A program made the position numbers and the translations under genes. Below are positions 4,242 through 31,887 of a stretch of DNA of 48,857 nt, in pieces (within the stretch, counting starts at the first letter, position 1; each line of letters opens with the position of its first letter). The DNA is taken from the sequence record SRR20825010_1258; one strand, given 5' to 3'. A model generated the notes under the pieces. It made no database searches. It saw only the letters and a list, made by a program, of their open reading frames with translations, and had not been told where the DNA came from.

Positions 4242-5177
4242 ATGCATATTTTTGTAACCGGAGCATGTGGCTATAAGGGCAGTGTTCTTGTTCCGAAACT
4301 CTTGGCCAAAGGGCATTCGGTTACTGCATTTGATATCATGTGGTTCGGTAACTTTTTACAGCCACATCCCGCCCTCACAGTGGTGAAGGGAGATATCCGA
4401 AATATTGATGAAGTTGATCTAAGTGGGGTGGATGCCATAGTTCACCTGTCCAGTGTAGCTAATGATCCGTGTGGTGATCTAAATCCCCAGCTCACTTGGG
4501 AAATTAGCTGTCTTGCTACAATGCAGCTTGCTGACAGGGCGCAACGCTCTGGCATTAAACATTTCGTCTATGCATCTTCAGGTAGTGTCTACGGCGTCAA
4601 GGACGAACCGCAGGTCACCGAAGATCTCGAATTGCTGCCAATTTCAGAATACAATAAAACTAAAATGTGCGGTGAACGTATTTTGTTGTCTTACAAGGAT
4701 GACATGGCCGTCCAAATTGTGCGCCCCGCAACGGTTTGCGGTTTTTCTCCCCGTATGCGCCTTGATGTCTCTGTCAATATGTTGACGATGCAGGCGCTGA
4801 CAAATGGGAGAATTACAGTTTTTGGCGGAGATCAGACGCGCCCCAACATCCATATTGACGATATCACGGATCTCTACGTTTTTCTCCTCGATCATCCCGA
4901 AAATACAGGTGTGTATAACGCCGGTTTCGAGAACATTTCGATTCTGCAAATTGCAGAAATGGTGGCTAAACATGTGCCGGCCGAAATCATCGTCACGCCC
5001 TCAAATGATCCCCGTTCATACCGGGTGAACTCGGATAAACTTTTGGCCACAGGCTTTCGTCCATCGAAAACCGTTGAGGACGCAATCTGTGAGATTGTCG
5101 GTCTCTATCGGCAGAATGCGCTGAAGGACGATGAACGCTTCCACAATCTGAAGTGGATGCAGAAAGAGGTTCTGTAG
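4242..5177 (+). CDS. NAD-dependent sugar-nucleotide epimerase/dehydratase (extended SDR)
   Basis: TGACGYKG, YASSGSVYG, YNKTK catalytic motif, RPNIHIDD. Confidence 0.9.
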   Translation: MHIFVTGACGYKGSVLVPKLLAKGHSVTAFDIMWFGNFLQPHPALTVVKGDIRNIDEVDLSGVDAIVHLSSVANDPCGDLNPQLTWEISCLATMQLADRAQRSGIKHFVYASSGSVYGVKDEPQVTEDLELLPISEYNKTKMCGERILLSYKDDMAVQIVRPATVCGFSPRMRLDVSVNMLTMQALTNGRITVFGGDQTRPNIHIDDITDLYVFLLDHPENTGVYNAGFENISILQIAEMVAKHVPAEIIVTPSNDPRSYRVNSDKLLATGFRPSKTVEDAICEIVGLYRQNALKDDERFHNLKWMQKEVL

Positions 5178-5179
5178 CC

Positions 5180-5788
5180 ATGCGTTCACAGCAAAACACC
5201 TCAAGCTATTCGCAATCCAATGCAATGTTTTCTGATTATTCGGCTCGACTTTCAGTTTTGATGGCAAGTTTCGACTGGACCCCAGTGTCGAAATTGGCAG
5301 AGGAGTTTCTTGACTGCTGGAAATCAGGAAGACAGATATTTGTCGCAGGGAATGGCGGAAGTGCAGGTAATGCAATCCATCTGGCAAATGATTTCATATA
5401 CGGAATTTCGAAGCAGCCCGGCTCAGGGTTACGCATACACGCGCTACCCGCTAATTCAGCTGTGTTGACGTGTCTGGCCAATGACGAGGGATATGACCAG
5501 ATTTTTTCGCTTCAACTAGCGGTTCAGGCTCGAAGCGATGACGTGCTGATTGTGCTTTCCGGCAGTGGCAATTCACCCAATATTCTCAAAGCATTGGAAG
5601 AGGCCAAAAAAATCGGGATGAAATCCTACGCAATTCTTGGCTTCTCTGGTGGCAAGGCGCTTGCGATGGCAGACGTGCCTATCCACTTTCCGATCGACGA
5701 TATGCAAATATCGGAGGATACGCAGCTCATTGTCGGACATATGGTTATGCAATGGCTTTATAGCCAGCGCGATCAGGCATTGGCCTAA
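5180..5788 (+). CDS. gmhA: SIS-domain phosphosugar isomerase, GmhA-like
   Basis: AGNGGSAGNAIH, TCLANDEGYDQIF, LSGSGNSPN, QISEDTQ. ATG 5180 lies 2 nt after the upstream stop (ORF track starts at 5153). Confidence 0.8.
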   Translation: MRSQQNTSSYSQSNAMFSDYSARLSVLMASFDWTPVSKLAEEFLDCWKSGRQIFVAGNGGSAGNAIHLANDFIYGISKQPGSGLRIHALPANSAVLTCLANDEGYDQIFSLQLAVQARSDDVLIVLSGSGNSPNILKALEEAKKIGMKSYAILGFSGGKALAMADVPIHFPIDDMQISEDTQLIVGHMVMQWLYSQRDQALA

Positions 5789-5805
5789 AAGAAACGATAT
5801 CCATT

Positions 5806-6804
5806 ATGACATCCGGCAAAAAATTTCTCCTTCTTGGCTCGAATTCATTCTCAGGTGCAACGTTTGCTGACTATTTGGCCTCACTGGGCCACGAGGTAGT
5901 TGCTACTAGCCGATCTGCAGAACCGCACGATGTCTTTCTTCCCTATAAATGGCAGAAGCGGGACGGGCACGTTTCCTTTGAGGTGGTCGATATCAATCAT
6001 GATTTGGCCAAACTTGCTGAAATTTTAAAACGTGTGAAGCCGACTCATGTCGTGAATTTTGCTGCTCAAAGTATGGTTGGAGAAAGCTGGAAAAACCCTG
6101 ATCATTGGATGATGACGAATGTTGTCTCGACGGTTCGGCTTCACGAACATTTGCGGCACTGTGATTTTCTCGAACGATATGTTCATGTCACCACACCAGA
6201 GGTGTATGGCAGCACTGATGGTTGGATTAAAGAAGGTATACCCTTCAACCCGACCACACCTTATGCCGTATCACGGGCTGCAGGAGATATGAGTCTACAA
6301 ACCTATGTGAAACAATATGATTTTCCGGCTGTCTTGACGCGCGCGGCCAACGTTTTTGGGCCTGGTCAGCAACTCTACCGAATTATACCGCGCACAATTC
6401 TATTTGCTATGACAGGTCGAAAACTGCAGTTGCATGGCGGGGGGCATTCGATTCGCTCGTTTATTGACATGCGAGATGTTTCCGCGGCGACGCTAAAAAT
6501 CGCGCTCTCCGGAAAAAAGGGCGACACATATCACATTTCGACACCGCAATTAATTTCGATCAGAGATCTAGTGGAGATGATTGTGAAGCGGCTCGGAAAG
6601 ACAATTGAAGAGGCGGTTGAGATTGTCGATGAAAGACCGGGAAAAGACACTGCCTATATGTTGAATAGCGAGAAGCTGCGTGACGAACTTGGCTGGCGCG
6701 ATGAGATCAAGTTAGAGCAGGGGGTGGAAGATACAATCCTCTGGGTAGAGAGAAATTTTGATGCATTGCAGCGCTTGCCTGCGGACTATTTGCATAAGCC
6801 TTGA
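5806..6804 (+). CDS. RmlB/Gmd-like NDP-sugar dehydratase with atypical catalytic motifs
   Basis: VNFAAQSMV, TTPEVYG, PYAVSRAA, NVFGPGQ, RPGKD follow the RmlB layout. Confidence 0.8.
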   Translation: MTSGKKFLLLGSNSFSGATFADYLASLGHEVVATSRSAEPHDVFLPYKWQKRDGHVSFEVVDINHDLAKLAEILKRVKPTHVVNFAAQSMVGESWKNPDHWMMTNVVSTVRLHEHLRHCDFLERYVHVTTPEVYGSTDGWIKEGIPFNPTTPYAVSRAAGDMSLQTYVKQYDFPAVLTRAANVFGPGQQLYRIIPRTILFAMTGRKLQLHGGGHSIRSFIDMRDVSAATLKIALSGKKGDTYHISTPQLISIRDLVEMIVKRLGKTIEEAVEIVDERPGKDTAYMLNSEKLRDELGWRDEIKLEQGVEDTILWVERNFDALQRLPADYLHKP

Positions 6805-6834
6805 AGCAATGACCATGGCAAGAGGAAAGCGCCG

Positions 6835-7677
6835 ATGAGTGGCCAGATGATTAGAGCGGAGATTGATATAGCTGCACTTGAGATAGCCGCCCGCCGATTG
6901 CGTGGGAAAGTGATTGAGATGTCCCATGCAGCTGGAAGCGCCCATCTGGGTTCATCTTTGTCATGCTGTGATATCGTGGCAGCCGCTTACGAATACGTGC
7001 TGAAAATTGATCCTGCCAATCCAAAAAGCGAAATCCGAGATAGGTTCATTCTCTCCAAGGGGCATGCTGCAACGACGATATATGCTCAGCTTGCCTTCAA
7101 GGGTTTTTTTCCTGAAGCTCTACTAGAAACCTATACGAAGGATGGCAGCAAGTTGGCTGAACATCCGCCGGCGAACACATTGCCCGGTGTTGAGGCAGCA
7201 ACAGGTTCTCTTGGCCATGGACTTCCCATCGGTAACGGTATGGCGTTAGCTGGCCGCATCAAGGGGCAGAACTATCGTGTATATGCGTTGATGTCAGATG
7301 GTGAGTGCAATGAAGGATCTGTGTGGGAGGCCGCTATGTTTGCAGCCGCTCAGAAGCTAGAAAATCTTTGTGTTGTCGTCGATTATAACAAGTGGCAAGC
7401 GACAGCACGTTCTAACGAGACCTTGGCGCTCGCCCCTTTGCGAGAGAAATGGGAAGCGTTTGGCTGGGACGCTGTCGAGATTGACGGTCATGATATTGGG
7501 GCTGTCGCCCGGCACATGTCCAATGTACCGAATGGTAGCGGTAAGCCCGTTGCTGTTATCGCACATACTGTAAAAGGCAAGGGTGTGTCGTTTATGGAGG
7601 ACGACAATAATTGGCACTATCGGGCGCCAACTGCCGAAGAAGTTGCAATTTCTCATAAGGAGCTGGGCCTCGCATGA
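6835..7677 (+). CDS. transketolase, N-terminal (ThDP-binding) subunit
   Basis: HLGSSLS, DRFILSKGHA, TGSLGHG, SDGECNEGSVWE...DYN, HTVKGKG. Confidence 0.93.
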   Translation: MSGQMIRAEIDIAALEIAARRLRGKVIEMSHAAGSAHLGSSLSCCDIVAAAYEYVLKIDPANPKSEIRDRFILSKGHAATTIYAQLAFKGFFPEALLETYTKDGSKLAEHPPANTLPGVEAATGSLGHGLPIGNGMALAGRIKGQNYRVYALMSDGECNEGSVWEAAMFAAAQKLENLCVVVDYNKWQATARSNETLALAPLREKWEAFGWDAVEIDGHDIGAVARHMSNVPNGSGKPVAVIAHTVKGKGVSFMEDDNNWHYRAPTAEEVAISHKELGLA

Positions 7678-8597
7678 GAAACGCTTTTGCCGATGAATTG
7701 ACAAAACTAGGTGAAGAAGATCCGCGTGTGGTTATGCTTTCTGGCGACATCGGAAACCGCCTTTTCGATAAATTTCGGGCATCGCATGCGGAGCGCTTTT
7801 TCAATTGTGGTGTCGCGGAGCAGAACATGATGGGTGTGGCTGCTGGAATGGCCATGTCGGGATTACGACCAATTGCATACACAATCACGCCCTTTATTAC
7901 GACTCGCTGCCTTGAGCAAATTCGTGTCGATGTGTGCTATCAAGAAGCTCCAGTTATGATCGTAGCAGTTGGTGCTGGCATGTCTTACGCGGGCCTTGGT
8001 CCAACGCACCATGCTTGCGAGGATATTTCGTTCCTGCGCTCTCTTCCGAATATGAATGTGGTTTGTCCAGCGGATGCATGGGAGGTAAGGGCCGCTATGC
8101 GCGCAGCGCTCCTGCAGGACAGGCCTGTCTATATTCGTATGGGTAAAAAGGGGGAGCCCAAAATCCATTCGGAGATACCGGCAGGGTTTCAGATCGGGAG
8201 AGCTCTGACCATTGAAGAAGGTCATGATGCTTGTTTGCTATCGACAGGAAATATGCTTCCTGAAGTCATTGAAGCTGCGCATCTATTGAAAGCCCAGGGC
8301 ATTTCGGTACGTGTGATTAGCTTTCACACAGTGAAACCACTTGATATTGCATGTCTTGAAGAAGCGTTTGCCTCGTTCAAGCTTGTTGCAACGATTGAAG
8401 AGCATAGTTTAATCGGTGGATTGGGTGCTGCTGTGGCGGAGTGGATTGTTGACAATGAGGTGCGCCCACAGAAGTTCCTGCGTTTCGGCACTTCAGATGC
8501 ATTTTTCAGATTGGCAGGCGAGCAGGAGTTTGCCCGCGAGCAACTTGGAATTGATGCAAAATCGATTGCTGAAAGAATTGAAAGCGCGTTGGCGTGA
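7674..8597 (+). CDS. transketolase, C-terminal (pyrimidine-binding) subunit
   Basis: GVAEQNM, GPTHH, YIRMGK, TIEEHS. ATGA overlap with the N-subunit gene. Confidence 0.93.
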   Translation: MRNAFADELTKLGEEDPRVVMLSGDIGNRLFDKFRASHAERFFNCGVAEQNMMGVAAGMAMSGLRPIAYTITPFITTRCLEQIRVDVCYQEAPVMIVAVGAGMSYAGLGPTHHACEDISFLRSLPNMNVVCPADAWEVRAAMRAALLQDRPVYIRMGKKGEPKIHSEIPAGFQIGRALTIEEGHDACLLSTGNMLPEVIEAAHLLKAQGISVRVISFHTVKPLDIACLEEAFASFKLVATIEEHSLIGGLGAAVAEWIVDNEVRPQKFLRFGTSDAFFRLAGEQEFAREQLGIDAKSIAERIESALA

Positions 8598-8621
8598 AAG
8601 CATTTTTGGGACAGCTTAGTC

Positions 8622-9233
8622 ATGCGTATCGGAATTGATTTTGACAATACAATTGTCAGTTACGACGCGCTTTTTCACAAAGTTGCCTTAGAGAAAGGTT
8701 ATGTGCCTGTTTCTCTTCCGGTGTCTAAAGTTGCGGTTCGTGACTATTTGCGCCGAGCAGATCGCGAGGATGACTGGACCGAGATGCAAGGTTATGTCTA
8801 TGGCGCTCGAATGGATGAAGCTGTTGCTTACCCAGGGGCTCTAGACTTTATGCGGTCAGCAAGAAATGATGGACACGAGCTGTTTGTAGTGAGTCACAAA
8901 ACCCTGCATCCGTTCCGTGGCGAACAGTATGATTTGCATGCCGCCGCACGAGGTTGGATTTTAGAGTTCATGACTGATCTTGGTGGTGATCTGATTGAGC
9001 CTAGTTGTATCTTCTTTGAGTTGACGAAGGAGAAAAAGCTCAAACGGGCAGCGGAACTAAGTGTGGACTATTTTATCGACGATCTGCCCGAGATATTGAA
9101 TTCGATACATTTTCCGAATTGTGCCGATCCGATTCTCTTCGATCCGGACAACCGCCATGGCTCTGAAGACCGATTGCTCCGGTTTTGCAGTTGGGGGGAG
9201 ATTTCGTCTCATCTCGGGGTGTCTGGTGGGTGA
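8622..9233 (+). CDS. HAD-superfamily hydrolase (putative sugar-phosphate phosphatase)
   Basis: Motif I DFDNT, motif II VVSHK, motif IV FIDD. Confidence 0.75.
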   Translation: MRIGIDFDNTIVSYDALFHKVALEKGYVPVSLPVSKVAVRDYLRRADREDDWTEMQGYVYGARMDEAVAYPGALDFMRSARNDGHELFVVSHKTLHPFRGEQYDLHAAARGWILEFMTDLGGDLIEPSCIFFELTKEKKLKRAAELSVDYFIDDLPEILNSIHFPNCADPILFDPDNRHGSEDRLLRFCSWGEISSHLGVSGG

Positions 9234-10248
9234 AAAATTTTTGAACACAGTCGAGAAAATCCTGACCGAGATTGGTCTGGATACCAGTTCGTTTGCAGCA
9301 ACTCCATGTAGGGATGGAGGCAACAATCTTGTTTATGAAATTCACCTTGGAAATCGAAAACTGTTGGGAAAGCAATACTACCGCAGTTCCCTAGATCAGC
9401 GTGATCGATTGAAATCCGAATGGGATTTCATTCAGTATGCTACAAAAGTTGCACCTAGAAATATTCCTAAACCAATTGCGATTGACCGTGCCGAGGGGAT
9501 AGGCATCTACGAGTTTATCGAAGGTCAGAAAATTTCAGCGAATAGTTTGGCGGATCGACATATCGAGGCGGCTGCCCGATTCATCAATACGCTTAATAAT
9601 AGGGAGAGTGTTTCACTCGCAGAAAATTTGTCTTCTGCATCGGAAGCTTGCTTCAGCATCGACGAGCATATCCAGATGGTCGATGGTCGACTTCGCCGTT
9701 TTGCCACTTTAGAAGCGATAGATGAACTAACGGAAGACGCTAATAAATTTATGAATACTGTGATGCTTGTCTGGAAAAGTGTTCGAGAGCAGATAGAACA
9801 GGGAGCGGGTTCTCTGGAGTTTGGGCTCAGTGATAATCTGCCTATGTCTCAAAGGTGCGTTTCGCCGTCTGACTTTGGGTTTCACAACGCACTGTTGAGG
9901 CCGAATGGTGAGGTCTGCTTTATAGATTTCGAATATGCAGGATGGGACGATCCGGCAAAAATGGTGGCTGACTTTTTTTGTCAACCTCAGATTCCTGTCC
10001 CGAAAGCCCATTTTGAGATGTTTCTAAATCTTGTGGTGGGGCCTTTTGATGGACGAGAAGAATTAAAATCTCGTACGCGACTTTTGTTTCCGGCTCAAAA
10101 GATCAAATGGGTATGCATCATGATGAACATCTTTCTGCCGGATGCCGCTAAGCGGCGGATGTTTGCAGACCCTGATGCTGCATCGGATGTACGAAAGAGA
10201 TTGCAATTGGAAAAGGCTCTGCTCGCGTTGAGTACATTGGAAATTTGA
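9226..10248 (+). CDS. aminoglycoside-phosphotransferase/choline-kinase-fold kinase
   Basis: GGNN loop, KQY, SPSDFGFHN (Brenner-type), IDFEYAGWDDP. GTG at 9226 overlaps the upstream stop (ORF track starts at 9121). Confidence 0.78.
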   Translation: MGEKFLNTVEKILTEIGLDTSSFAATPCRDGGNNLVYEIHLGNRKLLGKQYYRSSLDQRDRLKSEWDFIQYATKVAPRNIPKPIAIDRAEGIGIYEFIEGQKISANSLADRHIEAAARFINTLNNRESVSLAENLSSASEACFSIDEHIQMVDGRLRRFATLEAIDELTEDANKFMNTVMLVWKSVREQIEQGAGSLEFGLSDNLPMSQRCVSPSDFGFHNALLRPNGEVCFIDFEYAGWDDPAKMVADFFCQPQIPVPKAHFEMFLNLVVGPFDGREELKSRTRLLFPAQKIKWVCIMMNIFLPDAAKRRMFADPDAASDVRKRLQLEKALLALSTLEI

Positions 10249-10258
10249 GGAGTTCAGT

Positions 10259-10927
10259 ATGGCCTATGTCGACTTTCTTTCTGTCATCCATAAAAGCACG
10301 GCGCGCGACTATCTTGCTCGCGTGAACGATCCCGAGTTTCCGAAAGCTAAAGCAGCTGAACTGGCAAAGAGGTTTGACTTTGACTATTGGGATGGTGACC
10401 GTCGCATAAACTATGGCGGTTACAAGTATGATGGGCGTTGGGCAAAGGTCGCTAAGGCGATGGTTGATAGCTATGGGATCAAGCCGGGAGATAAGATTCT
10501 TGATATCGGCTGTGGTAAAGGATTTCTGATCTACGACTTTACCCAAGTTGTCCCGGGTGTGGAGGTGTATGGCCTCGATATATCGAAATACGCTATCGAC
10601 AATGCGCTCGACGACATCAAGGGACGAATCAAGCTCGGCCATGCGAATAGCTTGCCATTTGATGATAACGAGTTTGATCTCGTTTTCTCGATCAACACTT
10701 TTCATAATTTGCATGCATACGACCTTGACCGCGCTCTTCGTGAAATGGAGCGCGTTGGAAAGGCAAACAAATATATCTGCGTTGAGTCCTACCGAAATGA
10801 ATTTGAGAAGGCCAACCTTCTCTACTGGCAAGTGACTTGCGAAGCCTTCAACACACCGGAAGAGTGGAACTGGTGGTTTAAGCAAACCGGATATTCTGGC
10901 GATCATTCATTCATCTATTTCGAATAG
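10259..10927 (+). CDS. class I SAM-dependent methyltransferase
   Basis: ILDIGCGKG, GLDIS, LPFDDNEFDLV. GAGGAG RBS. Confidence 0.9.
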   Translation: MAYVDFLSVIHKSTARDYLARVNDPEFPKAKAAELAKRFDFDYWDGDRRINYGGYKYDGRWAKVAKAMVDSYGIKPGDKILDIGCGKGFLIYDFTQVVPGVEVYGLDISKYAIDNALDDIKGRIKLGHANSLPFDDNEFDLVFSINTFHNLHAYDLDRALREMERVGKANKYICVESYRNEFEKANLLYWQVTCEAFNTPEEWNWWFKQTGYSGDHSFIYFE

Positions 10928-10937
10928 GACCAAGACG

Positions 10938-11984
10938 ATGCTGCCCAGTAAGACAATGGCTGCCATTCTGGTCGAACAGCGCAAACCGCTTGTAGTTGCT
11001 GAGATTGAGTTGCCCGCCTCGCTCGAAGTAGGGCAGGTATTAGTGGAGATTGATTTTAGTGGAATTTGCGGTTCACAGCTTGGGGAGATAGATGGAGCGA
11101 AAGGGCCTGATCGCTTTCTACCGCATCTCTTGGGGCATGAAGCGTCAGGTCGTGTGGTTGCCATTGGTCCTGGAATTCGAAACGTAAAGCCCTTTGATAA
11201 AGTGGTTATGCATTGGCGGAAAGGCCCCGGCATAGAGGCACAGCCGCCCGCTTATCTGTGGAATGGCAAGCGCGTAAATGCCGGATGGGTCACAACTTTC
11301 AGTCAGCACGCCGTGATCTCAGAAAACCGACTGACTAAAATACCAGATGATAGCAATATGGAAGTTGCAGCGCTCTTTGGTTGTGCTGTGACAACAGGCT
11401 TTGGCGTGGTCGTCAATAATGCCAAATTGACTATTGGAGAGTCTGTTGTAGTGTTTGGGGCCGGAGGTATCGGCCTCAATATCATTCAGGCTGCGGCACT
11501 CTCTACTGCGCACCCAATTATTGCTGTTGATCTGTATGACAATAAGCTTGAATTAGCCCGATCACTGGGTGCAACGCATTTGGTCAACGCTCGGAAATGC
11601 GATGCGCGAAGGGCAGTTGAAGATATTGTCGGACCTCAGGGGCTGGATGTGTTCATCGACAACACCGGACAGCCTCTGGTCATCCAGCAAGGTTACGAAA
11701 TGACCAAACCGCAAGGCCGGGTTGTACTCGTTGGTGTGCCGAAAAAAGGAGCGGACATATCGATATATTCTCTACCCCTTCATTTTGGAAAGTCTATCTG
11801 CGGGTCTCATGGAGGCGAGGCAGCGCCCGAGGTCGATATTCCCCGGTATCAGTCACTTTACACAAAAGGTCTGATCGATCTTGATAGGTTGATTACAGCG
11901 CGTTTTTCACTTGATAATATAAATAGCGCGATAGAAACGATGAGAGGTGGCGAAACATCCGGACGGGTTCTGATCGCTATGTGA
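10938..11984 (+). CDS. zinc-binding alcohol dehydrogenase (MDR family)
   Basis: GICGSQ, LGHEASG, GCAVTTG, GAGGIG. Lacks the structural-Zn Cys4 lobe. Confidence 0.9.
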   Translation: MLPSKTMAAILVEQRKPLVVAEIELPASLEVGQVLVEIDFSGICGSQLGEIDGAKGPDRFLPHLLGHEASGRVVAIGPGIRNVKPFDKVVMHWRKGPGIEAQPPAYLWNGKRVNAGWVTTFSQHAVISENRLTKIPDDSNMEVAALFGCAVTTGFGVVVNNAKLTIGESVVVFGAGGIGLNIIQAAALSTAHPIIAVDLYDNKLELARSLGATHLVNARKCDARRAVEDIVGPQGLDVFIDNTGQPLVIQQGYEMTKPQGRVVLVGVPKKGADISIYSLPLHFGKSICGSHGGEAAPEVDIPRYQSLYTKGLIDLDRLITARFSLDNINSAIETMRGGETSGRVLIAM

Positions 11985-12690
11985 TCAGCCATGTTGGTCG
12001 ATATTCCGTATGGGCTTTTTGTAAGCTTTCGACCGAACCAATGTCACGGTGGTATAAGCTGTTTTCTACAGCGATGATTCTGCCTAGAAAATGGGGAATA
12101 ACTTCAGTGCTTAGGTCCAATACTGGTCGGCCGAGGCGAAGTGCAAACTCTACAACTTCCGGCGCAACGATATAAACAGCAGCATTGGCAAGATTTCCTG
12201 GAGGGTTCTTCACCTTCTCATGGAATGCCTGAACAATATTTTTTTCGTCAAGCTCCAGAATTCCGCAAGAAGATGGATCGTCGGTTCGAAAGGTTAGCAT
12301 CGCTATGACGCAGTTGTCAGGGCGGGCATCAAATGCTGCTCGGAATTTTGGTAGATCGAAGTCTGTTAAATTATCCGCATGCGCCACAAGGCACGTATTT
12401 CCACCGAAATATTCTGCGTTCGCGATTAGTGTGCCAGCTGTGCCCAAGAGTTTTTCCTCGTGCACTGTATCTACCTGATCCCGCCACTCTGAGCCCTTGA
12501 TGTAGGTTTCGACCGCTTCCGCTAGGTAGTGAGTGTTGATTAGTGTGCGTTCTATGCCAGCTTCGGAAAGGCGTTCTAGCCAAATATCCAGTAAAGGGCG
12601 TCCATGAATTGGGACCAGACATTTGGGGATTGAGTTTGTAACAGGTCGTAATCTTGTGCCGAGACCGGCGGCTAGCAATAAAGCTCGCAT
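11977..12690 (-). CDS. sugar-1-phosphate nucleotidyltransferase (HddC/mannose-1-P guanylyltransferase-like)
   Basis: LLAAGLGTRLRPVT..IPKCLV, LGTAG, FHEK, DIG. Confidence 0.9.
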   Translation of the reverse strand: MRALLLAAGLGTRLRPVTNSIPKCLVPIHGRPLLDIWLERLSEAGIERTLINTHYLAEAVETYIKGSEWRDQVDTVHEEKLLGTAGTLIANAEYFGGNTCLVAHADNLTDFDLPKFRAAFDARPDNCVIAMLTFRTDDPSSCGILELDEKNIVQAFHEKVKNPPGNLANAAVYIVAPEVVEFALRLGRPVLDLSTEVIPHFLGRIIAVENSLYHRDIGSVESLQKAHTEYRPTWLIT

Positions 12691-12702
12691 TTGGTCACCA
12701 AA

Positions 12703-14202
12703 TCAGGACGTAGGATATTCCATCTCTGTGAGAATATCCTCTAGTGTGAGTGGCGTATTGCCAACGCGCGAGACCTGACAGCCTGCTGCCATTGCGCCGA
12801 GATATGCGCTTTGCCAGATATCGGTTCCCGCGGCGTATGCCAATGCGCTACTTGTGAAGAGGCTGTCACCTGCCCCTGATACATCTTTGGCGTTTATATT
12901 AAACGCCGGCAAGCGGTCGGTCACAGGTTCGCCGTCTTCGATACCATGAATAAGCAACCCTTCCGAGCCAAGCGTAACAAAGACATTTTCTGCCCGTGCC
13001 GTATCGCGCAAGCTCTCACAGAGAACTACAAGCCCGGAATCTTGATCGCGTAACGCCAGCCGGGCCTCGCGCTCTGTCGGAGTAATGAGGATCATGTCCT
13101 TGAAGCGCGAAATATCGGAAAGTTGAGAGGAGGCCTGACTGTCAGCGGCCATCATGATACCTTTGGCCTTGGCCATGCTAACGATTTCATCGACCAATAT
13201 CTGCGGCAAGCAACCATAGTTGAAATCGGCGAAAAGTATAATGTCGGTATGGTCTAATTGTCGCGAAACCGTCTCGCTCATACGAGAAATTATGTCTGGC
13301 GCAATAGCGTGTTGGCGCATTCGGTTGACGCGGAGCAGCGTCTTTCCTAGTGCCCGATATCTGGTTTTGTGGGTTGTTGGTCGCGTTGTGTCAAAGAACA
13401 AATTTGTTTGAACACCGTAAGACGCGAGTTTTTCCTGGGCAAAAATAGATTGTTCGTCTGAACCGCTAACCGTTAAAAAGCGAACGTCCGCTCCAAGGCT
13501 TCGCGCATGCGCAGCTACAATACCTGCTCCGCCGACAAAACTCTTCTCCTCAATAGGTGAGACAACAATTGTTGGATCTTCCTGCGACATGCCAACTGGA
13601 TCACACTCGACATATGTATCGACAATCAGGTCGCCAATTATGAGAACGCGCAACTTCGCAATTTTCGACAAGGCCAGTTTGAGATCGGAGATTCGAAAAT
13701 TGTGACGTGCGGGGTAGTCGGTAGGTTTCTTGATAGTTGCAAAATTTGTCTCGTAATACTCTTTCTGCAGTAGGTTGATGGATGAGAAGCGCATCTCCCC
13801 GCCGCCAAAGATTAATTTGCCGCCATAAGAATCTATAGCCGCTTGTTCTGGGTTGTTGCGTTTTTCAAATTCCTTGCCCTTGACGACAATTTCAGGTTTG
13901 AGAAGTTGGATAAATTCCTCTGGCTCATCTTCGAGGGCTACAACTAGATTAATCATTGTAATAGCGGCAAGGCTTTCGATACGCAGGTCACGCGCAAGCG
14001 AGACACCTTTTGTGTAGTCCGGATTGACTCCGACCACTAGAAAGTCAGAATTGTCTTTTGCAAATTTCAGAATGCGAAGATGGCCTGGATGTACAACATT
14101 GAAATTTCCGGAAACGAAAGCGACCCGACTTTTCGCGGGATATTCGTTTCTGAAAGATCTGACAAACTTTATCGCAGTGGACTCGTCCATTACCGTTACC
14201 AT
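12703..14202 (-). CDS. bifunctional HldE/RfaE-like protein: N-terminal nucleotidyltransferase plus C-terminal PfkB kinase
   Basis: N-terminal SGNFNVVHPGH and VKGKEF; C-terminal IGDLIVD, GGAGIVA, TPTEREA, DVSGAGD. Confidence 0.88.
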   Translation of the reverse strand: MVTVMDESTAIKFVRSFRNEYPAKSRVAFVSGNFNVVHPGHLRILKFAKDNSDFLVVGVNPDYTKGVSLARDLRIESLAAITMINLVVALEDEPEEFIQLLKPEIVVKGKEFEKRNNPEQAAIDSYGGKLIFGGGEMRFSSINLLQKEYYETNFATIKKPTDYPARHNFRISDLKLALSKIAKLRVLIIGDLIVDTYVECDPVGMSQEDPTIVVSPIEEKSFVGGAGIVAAHARSLGADVRFLTVSGSDEQSIFAQEKLASYGVQTNLFFDTTRPTTHKTRYRALGKTLLRVNRMRQHAIAPDIISRMSETVSRQLDHTDIILFADFNYGCLPQILVDEIVSMAKAKGIMMAADSQASSQLSDISRFKDMILITPTEREARLALRDQDSGLVVLCESLRDTARAENVFVTLGSEGLLIHGIEDGEPVTDRLPAFNINAKDVSGAGDSLFTSSALAYAAGTDIWQSAYLGAMAAGCQVSRVGNTPLTLEDILTEMEYPTS

Positions 14203-14289
14203 TGACCGGTTGCTGGGGGAATTTCTTGGCCCAGAATGTTTGTTCAGAGTCTAGCAAAGCCATTTGCTAGCCGCATCAAAATAACCCGA

Positions 14290-15180
14290 CTATTTCTTTT
14301 CAGAGAAATGTTCGAGTGCCAGAGCTGTGCAAATTTCCTCCATGCTTTGGAATGACCAGTTGATTTTGCTCTGCAGCTTGCTGATTGAAAAGGAGGTGTT
14401 GAGAGGGCGCCGTTCTAGAAATGGAAAGTCATGCAATAGGCATGGCTCAAGTTGATATGACAGCGATGGCTGAACTTCGATGATTTTATCTATAAGCAGC
14501 TGGAATAAGGAATAACGGCTATAGGCCTTGGGGCCGCCCAAGTGAAACAGTCCTGTTTCCCCTAATTCCGCCAAGCGGACGATGGCACCGGCGACATCAT
14601 CGACATGTGCAGGCGAAAATATTTGGTCGGTGGCTGCCTTCTGCAATTCACCGGCAAGAATTGCGTTGATCCACTGGCCCAATGTGCTGTGCGTATTCCT
14701 GTCGCCACTGACGACTTTCGATAAGCGGACGATCAGCCAATCGCAATTCTGTGTCTTTAGCCAGTTCTCGACGGCAAGTTTCTGACGGCCATACTCCATG
14801 CGGGGCGCGGCTATATCCTGCTCTGTCCGATAACCATTTTCGCCGTCAAAAACATAGTCGGTCGAGATGAAGATAGGCTTGCTCCCCAATTCTATGGCTT
14901 GCTTGAGAGCGCGAATTGAACCTTGGACATTTATGAGAGCCGTCCGTTCAGGGGCTTTAGCACAACCATCCATTTCAATTGCGCCGCCAACCATAAAGAC
15001 GCAACCAGGGCATTCCGCAATACCTGAAATATAGTCTGATGTGACATTGAACTTCGCGCCTCCCCAAAAGGGCCTACTATTGAATGTTCCAATGCCGCCG
15101 CTTGGCCCAAGCAGCTTGGTGAGCTTGCTGCCCAAAAAGCCGGATCCTCCGATAACTATTGAGTTTGTAAGTGAAGTCAA
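14290..15180 (-). CDS. RmlD-like NDP-4-keto-sugar reductase
   Basis: GGSGFLG, ISTDYVFDG, YGRQK, DQIFSP, RPLNTS. Confidence 0.85.
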   Translation of the reverse strand: MTSLTNSIVIGGSGFLGSKLTKLLGPSGGIGTFNSRPFWGGAKFNVTSDYISGIAECPGCVFMVGGAIEMDGCAKAPERTALINVQGSIRALKQAIELGSKPIFISTDYVFDGENGYRTEQDIAAPRMEYGRQKLAVENWLKTQNCDWLIVRLSKVVSGDRNTHSTLGQWINAILAGELQKAATDQIFSPAHVDDVAGAIVRLAELGETGLFHLGGPKAYSRYSLFQLLIDKIIEVQPSLSYQLEPCLLHDFPFLERRPLNTSFSISKLQSKINWSFQSMEEICTALALEHFSEKK

Positions 15181-15196
15181 ATTACTGTCCGCTTAT

Positions 15197-16399
15197 CTAG
15201 ATCAGCTTACGAATGCTTCGCGGGCTGCCCGCAAATATTGATAGAAAGTCACCTCCTCGTGCGACGAACTCTGAGTTGCGCGATATGACATTGGTTTCGT
15301 TAGTTATAGAAACAGCGAGCAGGCACAATTTGACGCTGCGATCGACAAGGGCCGATGTTGGAAGGATAGGGAGTCCAGCACCCGGCAGAAAAAGGCCCTG
15401 TTTTTGAGGCGTATCATCGGCAACAAAGTCAATAAGTTCACCAAGTTGGTGGAAGTTCACAAACGCGCAAGCAAGGTGTCCAGCTCCAAAAAGTGCTATA
15501 GGTCCAGTGTCTTGCTTATATCGGTTCAAGAAATACCTTAGTGCCTCTGATATTGGCTGAAAGGCCCTTGCATAGCTTGAGATATCGAAAGCTGGCGCTA
15601 GCGCTATGTCTTCAAACGCGGCGGGAGTGGATGGATTGCTCTTGCGTGCGATTTGAACAAGCGAATTTTCAAATGAATAGGGGTAGGTAATTGTTTGAAG
15701 CGATTCAAATCCAACAGTTTGAATAAGCGGAGTAAACGTCTCGGGAGTGAAATATAGCGAATGCTCTTCCCAGATCATTGCATAGTCGTTTAGTTGTAGG
15801 CTGGGGGTACAGTCGGGTACTTCAAGTATGATTAAGCCGCCCGATGAGACGAGTTCGGAAATGCCCTCAAGGAAGGAACGAAGATCTTCCGTATGCTCCA
15901 TGATGTGGCGCACAATTAGGATATCTGCCTGTCCCTTTTGCGCAGCGATCGACCTCATCGTATTGGTGGTCGTAAGCTTCTGTACGGTTTCGATATTTGC
16001 CTTTGGGTCGTGAATGCCAAGGTCTTTTGCTGGGTCTAAGCGCCAAGTCGAATGAAAGCCTTTGGCGCGAAAACGATCGATTGTTGTATCGTCCTTCGAT
16101 GTAAGTCCGCCCACTACGCACTCCGTAGTAACGCCTTCAATATTTAGAATGCGTTCGACAGTGTCATCGAGATGGTCTTCGGGTTCGCGTGCAAATAGCC
16201 ATTCGTATGGTGGCACAAGTTCATTGTGTGGGACCGGTGCCATGAGCTGGATGTTTCCGCAGTATGTGCATTGTCCAAGAGCAATCGGAACGAGGTTCTG
16301 TTGGGTGTCAGGCGTCGACAAAAAAAAGCTGGAGATAGGTTGATATCCCAAGTCGAGATGCTTTGAGACGCTTTTCCGGCCACATGCGAGGCAACTCAT
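15197..16399 (-). CDS. NDP-sugar C-methyltransferase-like protein (Zn finger, SAM domain, C-terminal domain)
   Basis: CLAC...LDLGYQPI...CTYC, RHIMEH, LEVPD, EEHSLYF, FGAGH, DDTPQKQGLFLPG..LPI. Confidence 0.82.
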   Translation of the reverse strand: MSCLACGRKSVSKHLDLGYQPISSFFLSTPDTQQNLVPIALGQCTYCGNIQLMAPVPHNELVPPYEWLFAREPEDHLDDTVERILNIEGVTTECVVGGLTSKDDTTIDRFRAKGFHSTWRLDPAKDLGIHDPKANIETVQKLTTTNTMRSIAAQKGQADILIVRHIMEHTEDLRSFLEGISELVSSGGLIILEVPDCTPSLQLNDYAMIWEEHSLYFTPETFTPLIQTVGFESLQTITYPYSFENSLVQIARKSNPSTPAAFEDIALAPAFDISSYARAFQPISEALRYFLNRYKQDTGPIALFGAGHLACAFVNFHQLGELIDFVADDTPQKQGLFLPGAGLPILPTSALVDRSVKLCLLAVSITNETNVISRNSEFVARGGDFLSIFAGSPRSIRKLI

Positions 16400-17295
16400 A
16401 GGTTTTCACTCCGTCTCTGATTGCTAGAGACTTGTCGGTACATTTTTTCGATGCCAGAGACTAGTGAAGTGAACTTGTAATTGGGCATAAGTGCTAAAAG
16501 TCTTGTTGGGTCAAAACAATTGTCTACCTTTTCCTTGGACCTTTCGCGGGACGAGATCTTCGGCATTCTTGTTACAACAGTCCGTATCGCACTTAAGGCA
16601 TCATTAAAGGTATAGCTGGTGCCGGACGCGATGTTGAGTGGATTGGTTTCGTTGCTAATGATGTATTGCGCGAGAATTTCGATGACATCATCAATATAAA
16701 GAAATTCTCGCTTCTCGCTCCCGTCTCCCCATAAGATGATCTCCTTGCCTGACATGGCGGCATTGAGAAACCCGCTGGGTCCGTAGGCATTTGCGACGTC
16801 GCCCGGGCCGTAAATTGTGGCGGGTCTTATGATGCCGAGTTCTGTATTGGGGAGGTTGCATATAGTTTTTTGCAGCATCCATTCAGCGTTGAATTTTGAT
16901 AGTCCGTAGTAACTACGTGGATGAGGGGGGGTATCCTCGTTGATATGCAGGTTTTCAATATCTTCGCCGTATATCGCGGCCGAGCTGAGATATACAACGC
17001 GCCGCGCTGAATGTGACTGAAGAAGGCGAATGAAATTCTGGATCATCGCCATATTCTTAGAAAATGTTTCAGGCGTGTCGCCAAGTTGTTTTTTTACAGC
17101 AGCGCACATAACCAATGTGCTTTCCGGTGTGAAAATAGTTGTTAGATCAAGCTTGGAACGCCCCGTTGTTAAATCTAGTTGTTCGAGAGACAGGCCTTGC
17201 ACTTCAAATGTCGCGGATAGAGAAGAAAGCTTTGTCAAAAGACGCGAGCCTATAAATCCCGTATGGCCTAGAACAACGAATTTTTTTTTGATCAT
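16396..17295 (-). CDS. NAD-dependent epimerase/dehydratase
   Basis: GHTGFIG, LSSAAIYG, YGLSK, REFLYIDD. ATG 17295 overlaps the upstream stop (ATGA). Confidence 0.88.
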   Translation of the reverse strand: MIKKKFVVLGHTGFIGSRLLTKLSSLSATFEVQGLSLEQLDLTTGRSKLDLTTIFTPESTLVMCAAVKKQLGDTPETFSKNMAMIQNFIRLLQSHSARRVVYLSSAAIYGEDIENLHINEDTPPHPRSYYGLSKFNAEWMLQKTICNLPNTELGIIRPATIYGPGDVANAYGPSGFLNAAMSGKEIILWGDGSEKREFLYIDDVIEILAQYIISNETNPLNIASGTSYTFNDALSAIRTVVTRMPKISSRERSKEKVDNCFDPTRLLALMPNYKFTSLVSGIEKMYRQVSSNQRRSENL

Positions 17296-17831
17296 TGTAC
17301 AGATTTCATGGTGTTTGTCCGGGATCGCAAAAATTCTAATCCGGCGCTTACATTTGATTCGGGCGGGGCCCATTCAGCAGCCTGGCTTTCTCCCGGATTG
17401 AATGGGCCAATTGTCGTTTCTAGAAATACGAACCATTCACTTAGAAATAGTAGTGAGTGGAAAGTGCCTTTTGGCATCCTGTAAAAGAAGCTTCCATCAG
17501 AGCCATAGATATTCATATCTATGATTTCAATTTCTTCACCAGTTTCGGAAAACAGCAAAGCAGTGGCCTCGCCTTCCAACACAGTAACAGTTTCGCTCTT
17601 GTTCAAATGACGGTGCGGGACAACATAGCTGTCGCGATGCATCACGATCAGCATTTCCTGTTGCAATGCGGACGGATCAGGATGGGTGCAAAGGCGTGCC
17701 CTCAGTTTTGGCGAGCTCAACGCGGCATCCTTGAGAAATGCTACTGTGTCTGTATCCACAGAAACAAATGAGGAATTGCAATAGAAAACTTCTGGCGATA
17801 CGCGATGGAGTTGTTTGATTGCTTTGTTCAT
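17292..17831 (-). CDS. wbuC: WbuC-family cupin metalloprotein
   Basis: SPKLRARLCTH, SYVVPHRH..KSE, FHSL, ETTIGPF, AEWAP. Start could also be 17843 or 17870. Confidence 0.8.
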   Translation of the reverse strand: MNKAIKQLHRVSPEVFYCNSSFVSVDTDTVAFLKDAALSSPKLRARLCTHPDPSALQQEMLIVMHRDSYVVPHRHLNKSETVTVLEGEATALLFSETGEEIEIIDMNIYGSDGSFFYRMPKGTFHSLLFLSEWFVFLETTIGPFNPGESQAAEWAPPESNVSAGLEFLRSRTNTMKSVQ

Positions 17832-17876
17832 GAGGTGAAGCATCCAGCAAGTTTGGATATTTTTATCCAATCCAAT

Positions 17877-18518
17877 TTAGCCAAAATTAGTAAACAGGTT
17901 GCGCAATCTGATCGCCGCATCTGCCGGCGTTGAGCAGAAAATGACGGGATAGTCTCTTGTGGCAAGGCTTGCTGCTTTCTCTCGTTCGTCAAGCCCGTGA
18001 CCGGTTTTGACATGAAAAGCACCGGTGATTTTGGCGTTGCGGCCGGCTTCAATATCAGAGGCCCTGTCGCCTACAATCCAGCTCCGCTCAAGCTTTATGT
18101 CAAGAAGGTAGCCCGCGAATTCCAGCATCGCCGGTCCGGGTTTACGCCATTGTGCCATTTGCTTTGAATAATTCGGTGTAAATTCGGGATGGTAGGGACA
18201 AGCTATTGTCAGATCAACTTGTGCGTCTTGGATATTTAGCAGGCGCTCTATTTCAGCTTCAACGGCTATGAATTGTGCTAGGTCAAATAGACCTTTGGCG
18301 ATGCCTGCTTGATTGGTTACGACCACCACGCTGAGACCGATCGCTCTGGCAGCATGGATGAGATCCACTGCTCCGTGTTCCAGCGCGACGTCTTGGACTC
18401 GCGAGAGATAATGGGTTTCTTCCACGATAACCCCGTCTCGGTCTAGGAACAGACACGGCCGTCCATGTCGATCAAAATCCGGGGTGGAAGAAATCCATAT
18501 GTCTGATGGTGGTGTCAT
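17877..18518 (-). CDS. gmhB: D-glycero-D-manno-heptose-1,7-bisphosphate phosphatase-like HAD (IIIA)
   Basis: FLDRDGVI, VTNQAGIA, ACPYHP, RKPGPAM, VGDRASD. Start uncertain (ORF open to 18593). Confidence 0.88.
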   Translation of the reverse strand: MTPPSDIWISSTPDFDRHGRPCLFLDRDGVIVEETHYLSRVQDVALEHGAVDLIHAARAIGLSVVVVTNQAGIAKGLFDLAQFIAVEAEIERLLNIQDAQVDLTIACPYHPEFTPNYSKQMAQWRKPGPAMLEFAGYLLDIKLERSWIVGDRASDIEAGRNAKITGAFHVKTGHGLDEREKAASLATRDYPVIFCSTPADAAIRLRNLFTNFG

Positions 18519-18706
18519 CAATGCCAGGCGGGTTTCGGTATGTTTGGGACGCGTCAGAAATGTACTGTTAGATTGGTTAACAGGCTTGCACATTCAGGAG
18601 CACTGCGGAAGTGATTGCCGGGCTATCTGATTGATTTGAACTGCAGCTAGGAGCGTCCCGTTGATAGTGATAGTTTGAGCACAACATCTAGCCTAGGTGA
18701 GGTGCA

Positions 18707-19366
18707 ATGCCTGGATTCACGGTGAAACGTATTTTTGACATTATTTTTTCGGGAATCGGGCTAATCGTTTTGTCTCCGGTGATGTTTTTCCTTGGCTTGC
18801 TCATCCTTTGCACATTGGGAAGGCCCGTGTTCTTCGTCCAACCCCGCATCGGATGGAAATCCCAAACTTTCTATTTGTTGAAATTTCGAACCATGCGACA
18901 CGCGGATAGCGCTGAGCCGAACTCTGACGCTGACAGATTGACGTCGCTTGGGCGCTTCTTGAGACGGAGCAGTATGGATGAGCTACCGGAGCTTTGGAAT
19001 GTTTTGCGCGGAGAAATGAGTTTGGTCGGTCCGCGCCCGCTGTTGGCTGAGTACCTGCCTTACTATACACCGCAACAGGCGCGTCGACATGATGTGCGTC
19101 CGGGATTGACTGGCTGGGCGCAGGTGAACGGACGAAATGCGACAAGCTGGCAGGAGCGATATCGTCTTGATAATGAGTATATTGATCGACAAGGCCTGTC
19201 TTTCGATCTCTATATTATTTTGCTGACTGTTTTGCGGGTGTTTGATGGCCGGGGAGTGCAGAACTCTAAAGGGGTGTCAATGCCTCGATTTGATGACGAG
19301 GTCTTAGCTGGGCGAACTGAGGGGCGTGTTGACCAGAGATCCGATAATCAAGTGACAGAGGGCTGA
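18707..19366 (+). CDS. pglC: monotopic undecaprenyl-phosphate phosphoglycosyl transferase, PglC-like
   Basis: KRIFD, KFRTM, SMDELPELWNVLRGEMSLVGPRP, RPGLTGWAQVNGRN. Confidence 0.88.
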   Translation: MPGFTVKRIFDIIFSGIGLIVLSPVMFFLGLLILCTLGRPVFFVQPRIGWKSQTFYLLKFRTMRHADSAEPNSDADRLTSLGRFLRRSSMDELPELWNVLRGEMSLVGPRPLLAEYLPYYTPQQARRHDVRPGLTGWAQVNGRNATSWQERYRLDNEYIDRQGLSFDLYIILLTVLRVFDGRGVQNSKGVSMPRFDDEVLAGRTEGRVDQRSDNQVTEG

Positions 19367-19368
19367 CG

Positions 19369-24350: not shown

Positions 24351-24392
24351 GATTGTTCCGTTTAAGCGGGCGCGACAGGTGCAGAAGCTCTG

Positions 24393-25457: not shown

Positions 25458-25608
25458 ACGTGATTCTTTCGCTCTCGGCTCGAGGCTATCAACAAAGTAG
25501 CTGCACTATATCCCTTATATTAACTTCGTTTTCGTGGGAAGTTTCAATAAGCTCGGTGAGGCAGAGAGTGAGCGATCTAATTGATTGGAACGAGCAGGAG
25601 TGGTAACA

Positions 25609-26457: not shown

Positions 26458-26625
26458 CGGGGCATTCTTTTGGTGTAGAAGCCGCTAGCTTGCCAAAATG
26501 AAATGTATAGATTCGTGACTAAGTTAAGTTGTTATTGCGTATAGGTGGAGCAGATATTCCTCAATATTTGTTCGTCTTGGGCAGTGTCGATGACTTGATT
26601 TGTTGGCCTGTTTATAAGTCCGGAG

Positions 26626-29471: not shown

Positions 29472-29697
29472 CAAGCAGTGCTTTCGCAAGGGGCATAGGA
29501 GAGGTGCGGAATTGATGGACCTTATAGCAGTTAAGGCAACTTGCGCAGTCTACAGTTGCTATAGCGGGAATCCGAAGCAAAACCGCTTCCTTCCAGCTTG
29601 ACGAGGGCATGGTGAGCGGCATACTTGGTGCTCGCATGAATAGATCGCGATGCATGCAGACAGTCCGTCTCGTCGACGATCCAGAACTGGGTACTCC

Positions 29698-31799: not shown

Positions 31800-31887
31800 A
31801 TTGGTAACCCTGATAAATCGCGCATTTCAAGCGGCCATCGGTTATTTGGGTGTCCAAGGACGGTTAAAGCGAACGGTAGGTAGCACT

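Follow-up and report, generated by a model that had tools for sequence, protein, structure and literature searches.

A split transketolase-like enzyme in an NDP-heptose-type gene block: a candidate sugar-branching system

Why would a gene block that appears to make an activated heptose carry a transketolase of its own? The question is raised by 16 genes at positions 4242-18593 of the window, the whole stretch of 48,857 nucleotides from sequence record SRR20825010_1258 that was analysed here. Among them are genes for a two-subunit (split) transketolase-like enzyme, TktN and TktC, of the kind that uses thiamine diphosphate (ThDP). The block is best explained as a nucleoside diphosphate (NDP)-heptose biosynthesis and tailoring pathway within a large surface-glycan island of the ABC-transporter type. 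Judging from sequence comparison, we see about an even chance that the transketolase-like enzyme transfers a hydroxyacetyl unit onto an NDP-keto-heptose, which would give a branched sugar of nine carbons (C9).

A conserved cassette around the HldE-like gene

The block was filled by 16 open reading frames (ORFs), nine on the plus strand (4242-11984) and seven on the minus strand (11977-18593), and the two gene sets were convergent with an overlap of 8 nt. Domains were assigned with Pfam and NCBIfam models. Nearly all matches to equivalog models were below the curated cut-offs, so that the assignments are made at the level of family and not of function. The first-pass annotation had described the 16-gene block and its domains from the letters alone; every domain that it named was recovered, and its view of an NDP-heptose-type pathway with heavy tailoring was supported. 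It had placed the end of the block at 18518, which fits a later start of the last gene, gmhB-like (domain match from residue 46), while the ORF itself reaches 18593.

When 185,579 species genomes were searched with the HldE-like fusion protein of the block as query, 49 loci with 43-65% identity were obtained; the genome of the window was not among them. Gene counts in these loci were taken from tblastn of the window proteins, because a crude calling of ORFs had overlooked genes in loci rich in GC. Eleven genes recurred together in 19 of the 49 loci, in several phyla including Pseudomonadota, Nitrospirota, Acidobacteriota and Myxococcota. Among the carriers are cultured bacteria, namely Jezberella montanilacus MWH-P2sevCIIIb (L045) and Tardiphaga robiniae (P0072). 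This cassette encodes two extended short-chain dehydrogenases/reductases (SDR1 and SDR2), a GmhA-like SIS-domain isomerase, TktN, TktC, a HAD-family phosphatase, an APH-like kinase, a methyltransferase, a zinc-dependent alcohol dehydrogenase (Zn-ADH), a nucleotidyltransferase of the NTP_transferase fold and the HldE-like (HldC-HldA) fusion. The usual order, in one operon, was HldE-like, NTP-transferase, SDR1, SIS, SDR2, TktN and TktC, then HAD, kinase, methyltransferase and Zn-ADH. SDR1, SIS, SDR2, TktN and TktC form a tightly packed gene string in the window, and their order recurs elsewhere. The gene set was thus found in the same order in other genomes, which is more than chance.

Beside the HldE-like gene, the NTP-transferase was present in 42 of the 49 loci, the Zn-ADH (at least 40% identity) in 24, SDR1 in 21, the SIS, SDR2, HAD and APH kinase genes in 20 each, and the methyltransferase in 19. 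A close split transketolase (at least 50% identity) was found in 19 loci, a distant transketolase-like enzyme (32-36%) in three and an E1 alpha/beta pair in six. These pieces were nested: many loci had the HldE-like and NTP-transferase genes alone, others added SDR1, SIS and SDR2, and the transketolase group was added to those. On the other hand, the 16 genes are not one unit as had first been assumed. The five genes at 14290-18593 were not conserved with the cassette (C-methyltransferase-like in 11 loci, WbuC in five, GmhB in three) and make up a variable tailoring set, leaving the 11 genes as the only conserved part.

A more distant form of the cassette was seen in two loci (L023 and L028, about 12100-19600, plus strand), with HldE-like, NTP-transferase and SIS genes, two SDRs, two DegT genes, a split transketolase-like pair of 35% identity and a protein of the radical SAM/SPASM kind. 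Upstream of it lay genes of the nonulosonate type.

The split transketolase and its replacements

TktN (6835..7677, plus strand) is the N-terminal, PP-domain subunit (Pfam Transketolase_N) and TktC (7674..8597, plus strand) the C-terminal subunit with the Pyr and C domains (Transket_pyr and Transketolase_C); the two genes overlap by 4 nt. The best solved relatives were the split transketolase of C. hydrogenoformans (6yak, 231 bits with TktN; 6yaj, 215 bits with TktC) and human transketolase. Against the NCBIfam model NF004559 the subunits scored 289 bits (N) and 196 bits (C), a sum of 485 where the cut-off of 488 was set for a full-length protein. All three domains, the ThDP motif and the activating glutamate expected of a transketolase were found. 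The glutamate, in the motif AEQ, was invariant, and the GDG motif reads SDGE. On the donor side, TktN His37, His77, His110 and His261 align with human His37, His77, His110 and His258 and were invariant in 17 of 17 sequences.

The substrate phosphate and acceptor site was different. Arg318 was the only one of five canonical features to be kept (TktC Arg2), whereas Ser345 is replaced by Arg29, His416 by Gly100, Glu423-Asp424 by Gly107-Leu108 and Arg474 by Lys158. The alignment around these positions was ungapped with identical residues on both sides. G100 and L108 were fixed in all 19 orthologs with at least 50% identity; positions 29 (R, K, N or G) and 107 (G, E, S or N) varied, with the canonical Ser/Glu reported as never restored. 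The cassette enzymes consequently carry the signature G...AGLG...H where canonical enzymes read H...GEDG...H.

The same was seen in a wider alignment of 131 TktC sequences, consisting of the window protein and 130 of the best 150 representatives at 50% clustering (20 were dropped for a length outside 280-345 residues). Histidine occupied the His416 column in one sequence, aspartate the Asp424 column in three, and both together were found in none of the 131; since the representatives are by construction those nearest to the query, this alignment does not sample canonical enzymes. The underlying search had 20203 hits at E <= 1e-3. The family is large, with at least 120 clusters at 74% identity or more, and its named members are called only 'transketolase' or 'transketolase family protein'. 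Judged by these residues, the cassette transketolase is not a housekeeping copy, in agreement with the dedicated enzyme originally suggested: the His416, Glu423-Asp424 and Ser345 positions are replaced in every cassette ortholog.

In six of the 49 loci (L005, L024, L033, L035, L036 and L047), an alpha/beta pair of the pyruvate dehydrogenase E1 type was found instead of the transketolase. The clearest arrangement was in L035, a translationally coupled operon of eight genes encoding HldE-like, NTP-transferase, SDR1, SIS, SDR2, methyltransferase, E1a and E1b. None of the six E1 loci had the HAD, kinase and Zn-ADH companions of the transketolase. In contrast, 18 of the 19 transketolase loci had the HAD and kinase pair, and the remaining one (L001) ends just after TktC. 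Where the pair was seen without a visible transketolase (L007, L015 and L043), the locus was cut at the edge at which the transketolase would lie.

Fusion proteins also linked the transketolase to sugar tailoring. P0202 joins TktC and TktN to an SDR with an RmlD_sub_bind domain, P0122 a TktC relative (63% identical) to a Zn-ADH, and P0230 TktC to a methyltransferase. In L026, two DegT-family genes were inserted between SDR2 and TktN. When loci were labelled on a quick IQ-TREE version of the HldE-like tree, the labels transketolase, E1 and neither were interleaved, requiring at least six label changes for the transketolase (forced by the starred branches) and at least four for E1. The interleaving indicates that the ThDP module was exchanged repeatedly on a stable NDP-heptose core.

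Other ThDP enzymes were encountered in the course of the survey. L035 also encodes, convergent to its E1-type heptose operon (17406-20077, minus strand), a three-domain enzyme of 602 aa resembling acetohydroxyacid synthase (AHAS) and YerE together with a classical SDR, giving two ThDP enzyme classes in one locus. In L042 (6307-9891, plus strand), the HldE-like/NTP-transferase pair is immediately preceded by a phosphonate module, made up of a cytidylyltransferase-phosphoenolpyruvate (PEP) mutase fusion, a ThDP decarboxylase of two domains and an Fe-ADH; a C-methyltransferase and a GFO_IDH_MocA oxidoreductase lie downstream. L042 had prompted the idea that a ThDP enzyme and an alcohol dehydrogenase might serve together as a general module for turning aldehydes into alcohols; the idea was dropped, the L042 module being a standard phosphonate one and uninformative on the transketolase. 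A second, full-length transketolase-like gene is present in the window itself (37597-39522, plus strand). Its product of 641 aa shares 40% identity with TktN and 28% with TktC, is also without the canonical His and Glu-Asp motif, and is flanked by genes for a PseF-like cytidylyltransferase (36758-37528) and a Capsule_synth (KpsC/S-like) protein (39540-41285).

A proposed route and its alternatives

The best solved relative of SDR1 (4242..5177, plus strand; Pfam Epimerase) was 6vo6/6vo8, with 126 bits over residues 3-292. Its motifs TGxxGxxG, SSGSVYG (without Glu) and YNKTK were invariant in 21 sequences and, at 59-86% identity across loci, it was the most conserved gene of the cassette. SDR1 is probably an NDP-heptose C4 oxidoreductase, as far as homology can tell; C. 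jejuni Cj1427 oxidises GDP-heptose at C4 according to PMC10680097.

The SIS-domain isomerase (5153..5788, plus strand) was GmhA-like (TIGR00441 gmhA, 108 bits with a cut-off of 209; B. pseudomallei GmhA 2xbl, 92 bits) and kept the phosphate loop SGSGNSPN. Its four metal/catalytic positions are H, D, E and H where those of 2xbl are H, E, Q and H, a change that was invariant in the family. SDR2 (5806..6804, plus strand) was an atypical RmlB-like SDR (TIGR01181, 205 bits with a cut-off of 365; PDB 6bi4, 154 bits) and is possibly a 4,6-dehydratase. It reads GSNSFSG, TPEVYG and YxxxR, with Arg in 20 of 21 sequences and His in L026; the RmlB counterparts are presumably GxxGxxG, TDE and YxxxK.

The activation genes stand on the minus strand. 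The sugar-1-phosphate nucleotidyltransferase (11977..12690; Pfam NTP_transferase) scored below every NCBIfam cut-off, with 118 bits for mannose-1-phosphate guanylyltransferase, 89 for MurU and 74.5 for HddC. In the fusion (12703..14202), an HldC-like nucleotidyltransferase (CTP_transf_like; rfaE_dom_II, residues 23-147, 72 bits with a cut-off of 181) precedes an HldA-like PfkB kinase (rfaE_dom_I, residues 178-492, 191 bits with a cut-off of 345). Both domains of the HldE-like enzyme named in the first-pass annotation were therefore present, but arranged the other way round from those of E. coli HldE. Solved structures matched were HldA 4e84 (84 bits) and 5x9q (41 bits), and the HxGH and GAGD motifs were conserved in 46 HldE-like sequences. 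The GmhB-like HAD-IIIA phosphatase (17877..18593, minus strand) fell short of PRK08942 (114 bits, cut-off 178) and TIGR00213 (104, cut-off 150) and passed TIGR01662 (84 bits, cut-off 45).

By homology, the SIS enzyme would convert sedoheptulose-7-phosphate to an aldoheptose-7-phosphate, the PfkB domain would form the 1,7-bisphosphate, GmhB would strip the 7-phosphate, and the HldC-like domain, the NTP-transferase or both would yield the NDP-heptose. SDR1 and/or SDR2 would then form an NDP-4-keto or NDP-4-keto-6-deoxy heptose. The split transketolase-like enzyme would take a ketol donor, maybe a ketose or hydroxypyruvate, to dihydroxyethyl-ThDP and place the two-carbon (C2) unit on the sugar carbonyl, leaving a tertiary alcohol with a hydroxyacetyl branch on a sugar of nine carbons. 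The Zn-ADH would then modify the carbonyl or alcohol of the branch, with methylation by the methyltransferase. The C-methyltransferase, WbuC, the RmlD-like reductase and a further SDR (SDR4) of the variable set might form an alternative or additional tailoring line drawing on the same NDP-keto-heptose pool.

We favour ketol transfer onto the NDP-keto sugar because of the replacement by E1, the fusions with the RmlD-type SDR and the Zn-ADH, the DegT genes of L026 and the changed acceptor pocket. A ThDP enzyme lies within an NDP-sugar operon next to a putative maker of an NDP-keto sugar, the arrangement expected of a ThDP-dependent branching system. This was one of the two routes of the first-pass annotation; the other, extension of a sugar phosphate, fits poorly with the comparative evidence. 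The rare methylated monomer it foresaw, of eight or more carbons or branched, remains a prediction, with the branched form favoured.

Two more cassette genes lie between the transketolase and the Zn-ADH. HADx (8622..9233, plus strand) gave a weak match to the HAD phosphatases, with DFDNT as motif I, SHKT, K and DD; its AlphaFold2 (AF2) model had a pLDDT of 95.8, and the nearest Foldseek folds, 5'(3')-deoxyribonucleotidases at TM 0.65-0.68, were generic. APHk (9226..10248, plus strand) is a small-molecule kinase of the APH/choline-kinase fold (Pfam APH) in which SPSDFGFHN and DFEY were invariant; its start near 9226 was inferred from the alignment, the ORF opening at 9121. As a single sequence APHk had no match in the PDB, and a profile of 18 sequences gave one marginal match there, corramycin phosphotransferase (E = 0.0011). 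Its AF2 model (pLDDT 94.6) was closest in Foldseek to choline/ethanolamine kinases, APH(2'') and LicA, again generic at TM about 0.6. HAD and kinase are fused in a protein of 546 aa in a metagenome-assembled genome of Anaeromyxobacter (L040:6537-8177, plus strand). The pair may make the donor, like ErwI and ErwJ of the erwiniose cluster, or phosphorylate the new primary alcohol. A chain terminator resembling WbdD, with the APH kinase and the methyltransferase as its parts, was also considered as a candidate and set aside.

Several points weigh against the ketol-transfer route. It assigns no role to the HAD/kinase pair, nor one to each of the two nucleotidyltransferases, although the HldC-like domain has an intact HxGH motif. 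SDR2 has neither the usual lysine of YxxxK nor the Asp of RmlB, which makes a dehydratase role uncertain. R29 and K158 are basic and Arg2 is kept, so that a phosphate site may persist and sugar-phosphate substrates are possible. The pocket argument uses residue roles that we take to be canonical, His37, His77, His110 and His258 for the donor side and Arg318, Ser345, His416, Asp424 and Arg474 for phosphate or the acceptor 2-OH. Likewise, 6vo6 is presumed to be Cj1427, the GDP-heptose C4-dehydrogenase of C. jejuni; a text search for '6VO6' returned nothing relevant. Many loci end at contig edges, making absences soft, and since the loci were gathered via the HldE-like gene they show the companions of that gene and not those of the whole transketolase clade. 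A glycan structure is known for none of the cassette carriers. Finally, PMC12247030 states that acceptance of a keto sugar by a transketolase has never been demonstrated in vitro.

Two alternatives are unlikely to about the same degree. In one, the Zn-ADH would oxidise the C7 CH2OH of the NDP-heptose to an aldehyde and the transketolase would add the ketol there, giving a linear NDP-non-8-ulose. Aldehydes are the natural acceptors of transketolases, the Zn-ADH (10938..11984, plus strand; ADH_N and ADH_zinc_N) resembles primary-alcohol dehydrogenases (nearest solved relatives class I-III and benzyl alcohol dehydrogenases, 140-153 bits), and it is fused to TktC in P0122 and directly follows TktC in alphaproteobacterial loci. 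However, the E1 operon of L035 has no alcohol dehydrogenase inside and yet keeps SDR1 and SDR2, which would make a ring ketone, and sugar enzymes of the E1 type are known to place their branches on ketones at C3 or C4.

The other places the extension at the level of sugar phosphates. A C8 or C9 ketose phosphate would be isomerised by the SIS enzyme and activated by the APH kinase, the HAD phosphatase and the NTP-transferase, in the manner of the lincosamide-type octose pathway, which runs through transaldolase, isomerase, kinase, phosphatase and nucleotidyltransferase. The product of a transketolase should always have a 1-hydroxy-2-keto group, as required by an aldose-ketose isomerase; a second set of kinase, phosphatase and nucleotidyltransferase is present, with the HAD-kinase fusion of L040; Arg2, R29 and K158 could bind phosphate; and the SIS metal ligands are unlike those of GmhA. 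Several observations speak against such an extension. The SIS enzyme (60-75% identical) is kept in the E1 loci, where the E1 product would be a 1-deoxyketose unusable by the isomerase, and it also occurs in L049 and L029, with no ThDP enzyme in the fetched stretch. No complete locus has the transketolase without SDR1 or SDR2 (SDR1 was seen in 17 of these 19 loci, the remaining two being truncated at the locus edge), TktC relatives are fused to SDRs of NDP-sugar type, and a scan of the 16 genes and the other 28 ORFs of the window found no transaldolase domain.

Slightly less credit is given to a separate small substituent. The transketolase, Zn-ADH, kinase and HAD enzymes would then make a C2-C4 polyol or alcohol phosphate, to be NDP-activated and transferred as a phosphodiester on the model of CDP-glycerol, CDP-ribitol and CDP-choline. 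The kinase fold nearest to choline/ethanolamine kinases including LicA, the two nucleotidyltransferases and the phosphonate module beside the same HldE-like/NTP-transferase pair in L042 agree with such a scheme. It is opposed by the kinase-less E1 pair that replaces the transketolase in six loci, by TktC relatives that are joined to an RmlD-type SDR and by the HldC-like domain being fused to a heptose-type kinase in all full-length copies.

That the transketolase only boosts sedoheptulose-7-phosphate for an ordinary (6-deoxy, methylated) heptose was rejected as very improbable. In favour of this reading, the enzyme is encoded beside a GmhA-like protein, a true split transketolase is its closest relative of solved structure and its summed score comes near the full-length cut-off. 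Against it, other residues stand family-wide at the canonical positions for phosphate binding and the acceptor, an E1 pair unable to make sedoheptulose-7-phosphate substitutes in six loci, relatives are fused to tailoring enzymes and many loci with heptose genes have no ThDP enzyme.

Tailoring genes, the surrounding island and known systems

The remaining plus-strand gene of the block (10259..10927) encodes a class I SAM methyltransferase (Methyltransf_31/11/25) that was 56-87% identical in cassette loci. The variable set on the minus strand comprises an RmlD-like NDP-4-keto-sugar reductase (14290..15180; RmlD_sub_bind, TIGR01214 112 bits with a cut-off of 224), a sugar C-methyltransferase (15197..16399) with the TylC3-type domains Methyltransf_13 (Zn), Methyltransf_23 and Methyltransf_14, SDR4 (16396..17373) and a WbuC-family cupin (17292..17870; TIGR04366, 128 bits with a cut-off of 42), besides GmhB. 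SDR4 is an extended SDR (Epimerase) with weak matches to GDP-fucose synthase and a heptose epimerase; its true start is probably after the WbuC stop, because the domain match begins at residue 33. With SDR4 and the RmlD-like reductase, the block has four extended SDRs, at 4242, 5806, 14290 and 16396.

The block opens an island that extends to about 44.5 kb and has a GC content of 0.45-0.50, compared with 0.51-0.57 in the flanks. The island contains a polyprenyl-phosphate sugar transferase, several glycosyltransferases, a sulfotransferase, Wzm/Wzt ABC-transporter genes and NeuD-, LegC-, NeuB- and PseF-like nonulosonate genes. Genes of the nonulosonic-acid type at 19369-21128 and 23532-25457 encode an acetyltransferase of the NeuD/PglB family (199 bits against a cut-off of 161), an aminotransferase of the LegC family (346 against 420) and, adjoined by a classical SDR, a NeuB-like synthase (288 against 400). 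The Wzm/Wzt genes, with a Wzt_C carbohydrate-binding domain, are directly followed by the sulfotransferase gene (29650-32952), and two paralogous Methyltransf_24 genes lie nearby (25585-27498); the sulfotransferase and Methyltransf_24 proteins are possible chain-terminating modification enzymes. An ORF of 589 aa at 34783-36552 (minus strand) had no Pfam match. Families of about 420-460 aa, also without a Pfam match, recur right after the HldE-like/NTP-transferase pair (L010:12201-13460, L017:1878-3254 and L038:12213-13520), and these large proteins may be unrecognised glycosyltransferases or polymerases.

The C. jejuni pathway to capsular GDP-heptose uses a GHMP kinase, whereas the window kinase is of the PfkB type and fused behind an HldC-like domain. 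Otherwise that pathway (GmhA, HddA, GmhB, HddC, Cj1427, epimerases and reductases) likewise leads from sedoheptulose-7-phosphate through an NDP-heptose to a 4-keto intermediate with exchangeable tailoring; the word transketolase does not occur in PMC10680097. The C. hydrogenoformans split transketolase shares the two-subunit architecture but keeps H...GEDG...H.

Among known branching enzymes, YerE of yersiniose A and ErwE of erwiniose, from Yersinia and Pectobacterium O-antigens, are alike in that a ThDP enzyme acts on an NDP-4-keto sugar to give a branched sugar of a Gram-negative surface glycan. The erwiniose cluster has donor-synthesis and branch-reduction genes adjoining the ThDP enzyme, ErwI and ErwJ making the donor according to PMC9306805. 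However, YerE and ErwE belong to the three-domain decarboxylase family and use CDP-3,6-dideoxy-4-keto-glucose, in contrast to the transketolase fold and heptose scaffold here, so that the YerE analogy drawn at first holds for the kind of reaction and not for the enzyme family.

E1-type enzymes are one of three ThDP classes described as adding C2 branches to keto sugars (PMC12247030 and PMC4753412). The alpha-KADH2/E1 branchers (aldgamycin, kibdelomycin KbDH, AviB1/AviB2 and Pau11/Pau12) put a C2 unit on C3 or C4 of an NDP-keto sugar, followed by tailoring of the branch, and in six sister loci of the cassette the place of the transketolase in the operon is taken by an E1 pair. They differ in using pyruvate and leaving an acetyl branch, whereas the window enzyme is of the transketolase type, with a hydroxyacetyl branch proposed and HAD, kinase and Zn-ADH companions. 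The nearest likeness is with the Streptomyces clusters for miharamycin and amipurimycin, in which, according to PMC12247030, split two-subunit transketolases within a sugar-tailoring cluster are proposed as hydroxyacetyl branchers that transfer a ketol to a keto sugar to give a tertiary alcohol. Those are antibiotic clusters and not surface-glycan heptose cassettes; the likeness was drawn from their description, and in both cases the reaction is a proposal. The same article reports 13 further split-transketolase candidates, all from Streptomycetes.

In a search of full-text literature that covered few subscription papers, no account was found of a heptose, O-antigen or polysaccharide cluster with a transketolase. 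The one candidate paper, PMC11766843, mentions the enzyme solely as part of central metabolism, and the first of three parts of PMC13663882, on split-transketolase biocatalysis, has no bearing on a physiological role.

ThDP-dependent sugar branching is thus a known kind of reaction, and what would be new is that an enzyme of the transketolase type acts on a heptose, in surface-glycan loci of Gram-negative bacteria. The current annotation of these proteins is too coarse, since the signature G...AGLG in place of H...GEDG parts the clade from the transketolases of the pentose phosphate pathway. We extend the proposal more tentatively, as a possibility somewhat short of even, to the whole non-canonical split-transketolase clade, which from its sequences may generally transfer hydroxyacetyl units to NDP-keto sugars, so that many environmental Gram-negatives would bear a branched, heptose-derived sugar of nine carbons. 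A compact cassette conserved in many phyla offers soluble candidate enzymes, together with the partners likely to form their substrate, for testing whether transketolases branch keto sugars. If the proposal is true, no sugar brancher of the transketolase type would precede this one outside Streptomyces, and the reaction could be proved on a tractable enzyme. For common bacteria of soil and water, the model predicts a C9 surface sugar built on a heptose; such a sugar would be undescribed so far and, in the wider reading for the clade, may also be methylated or phosphorylated.

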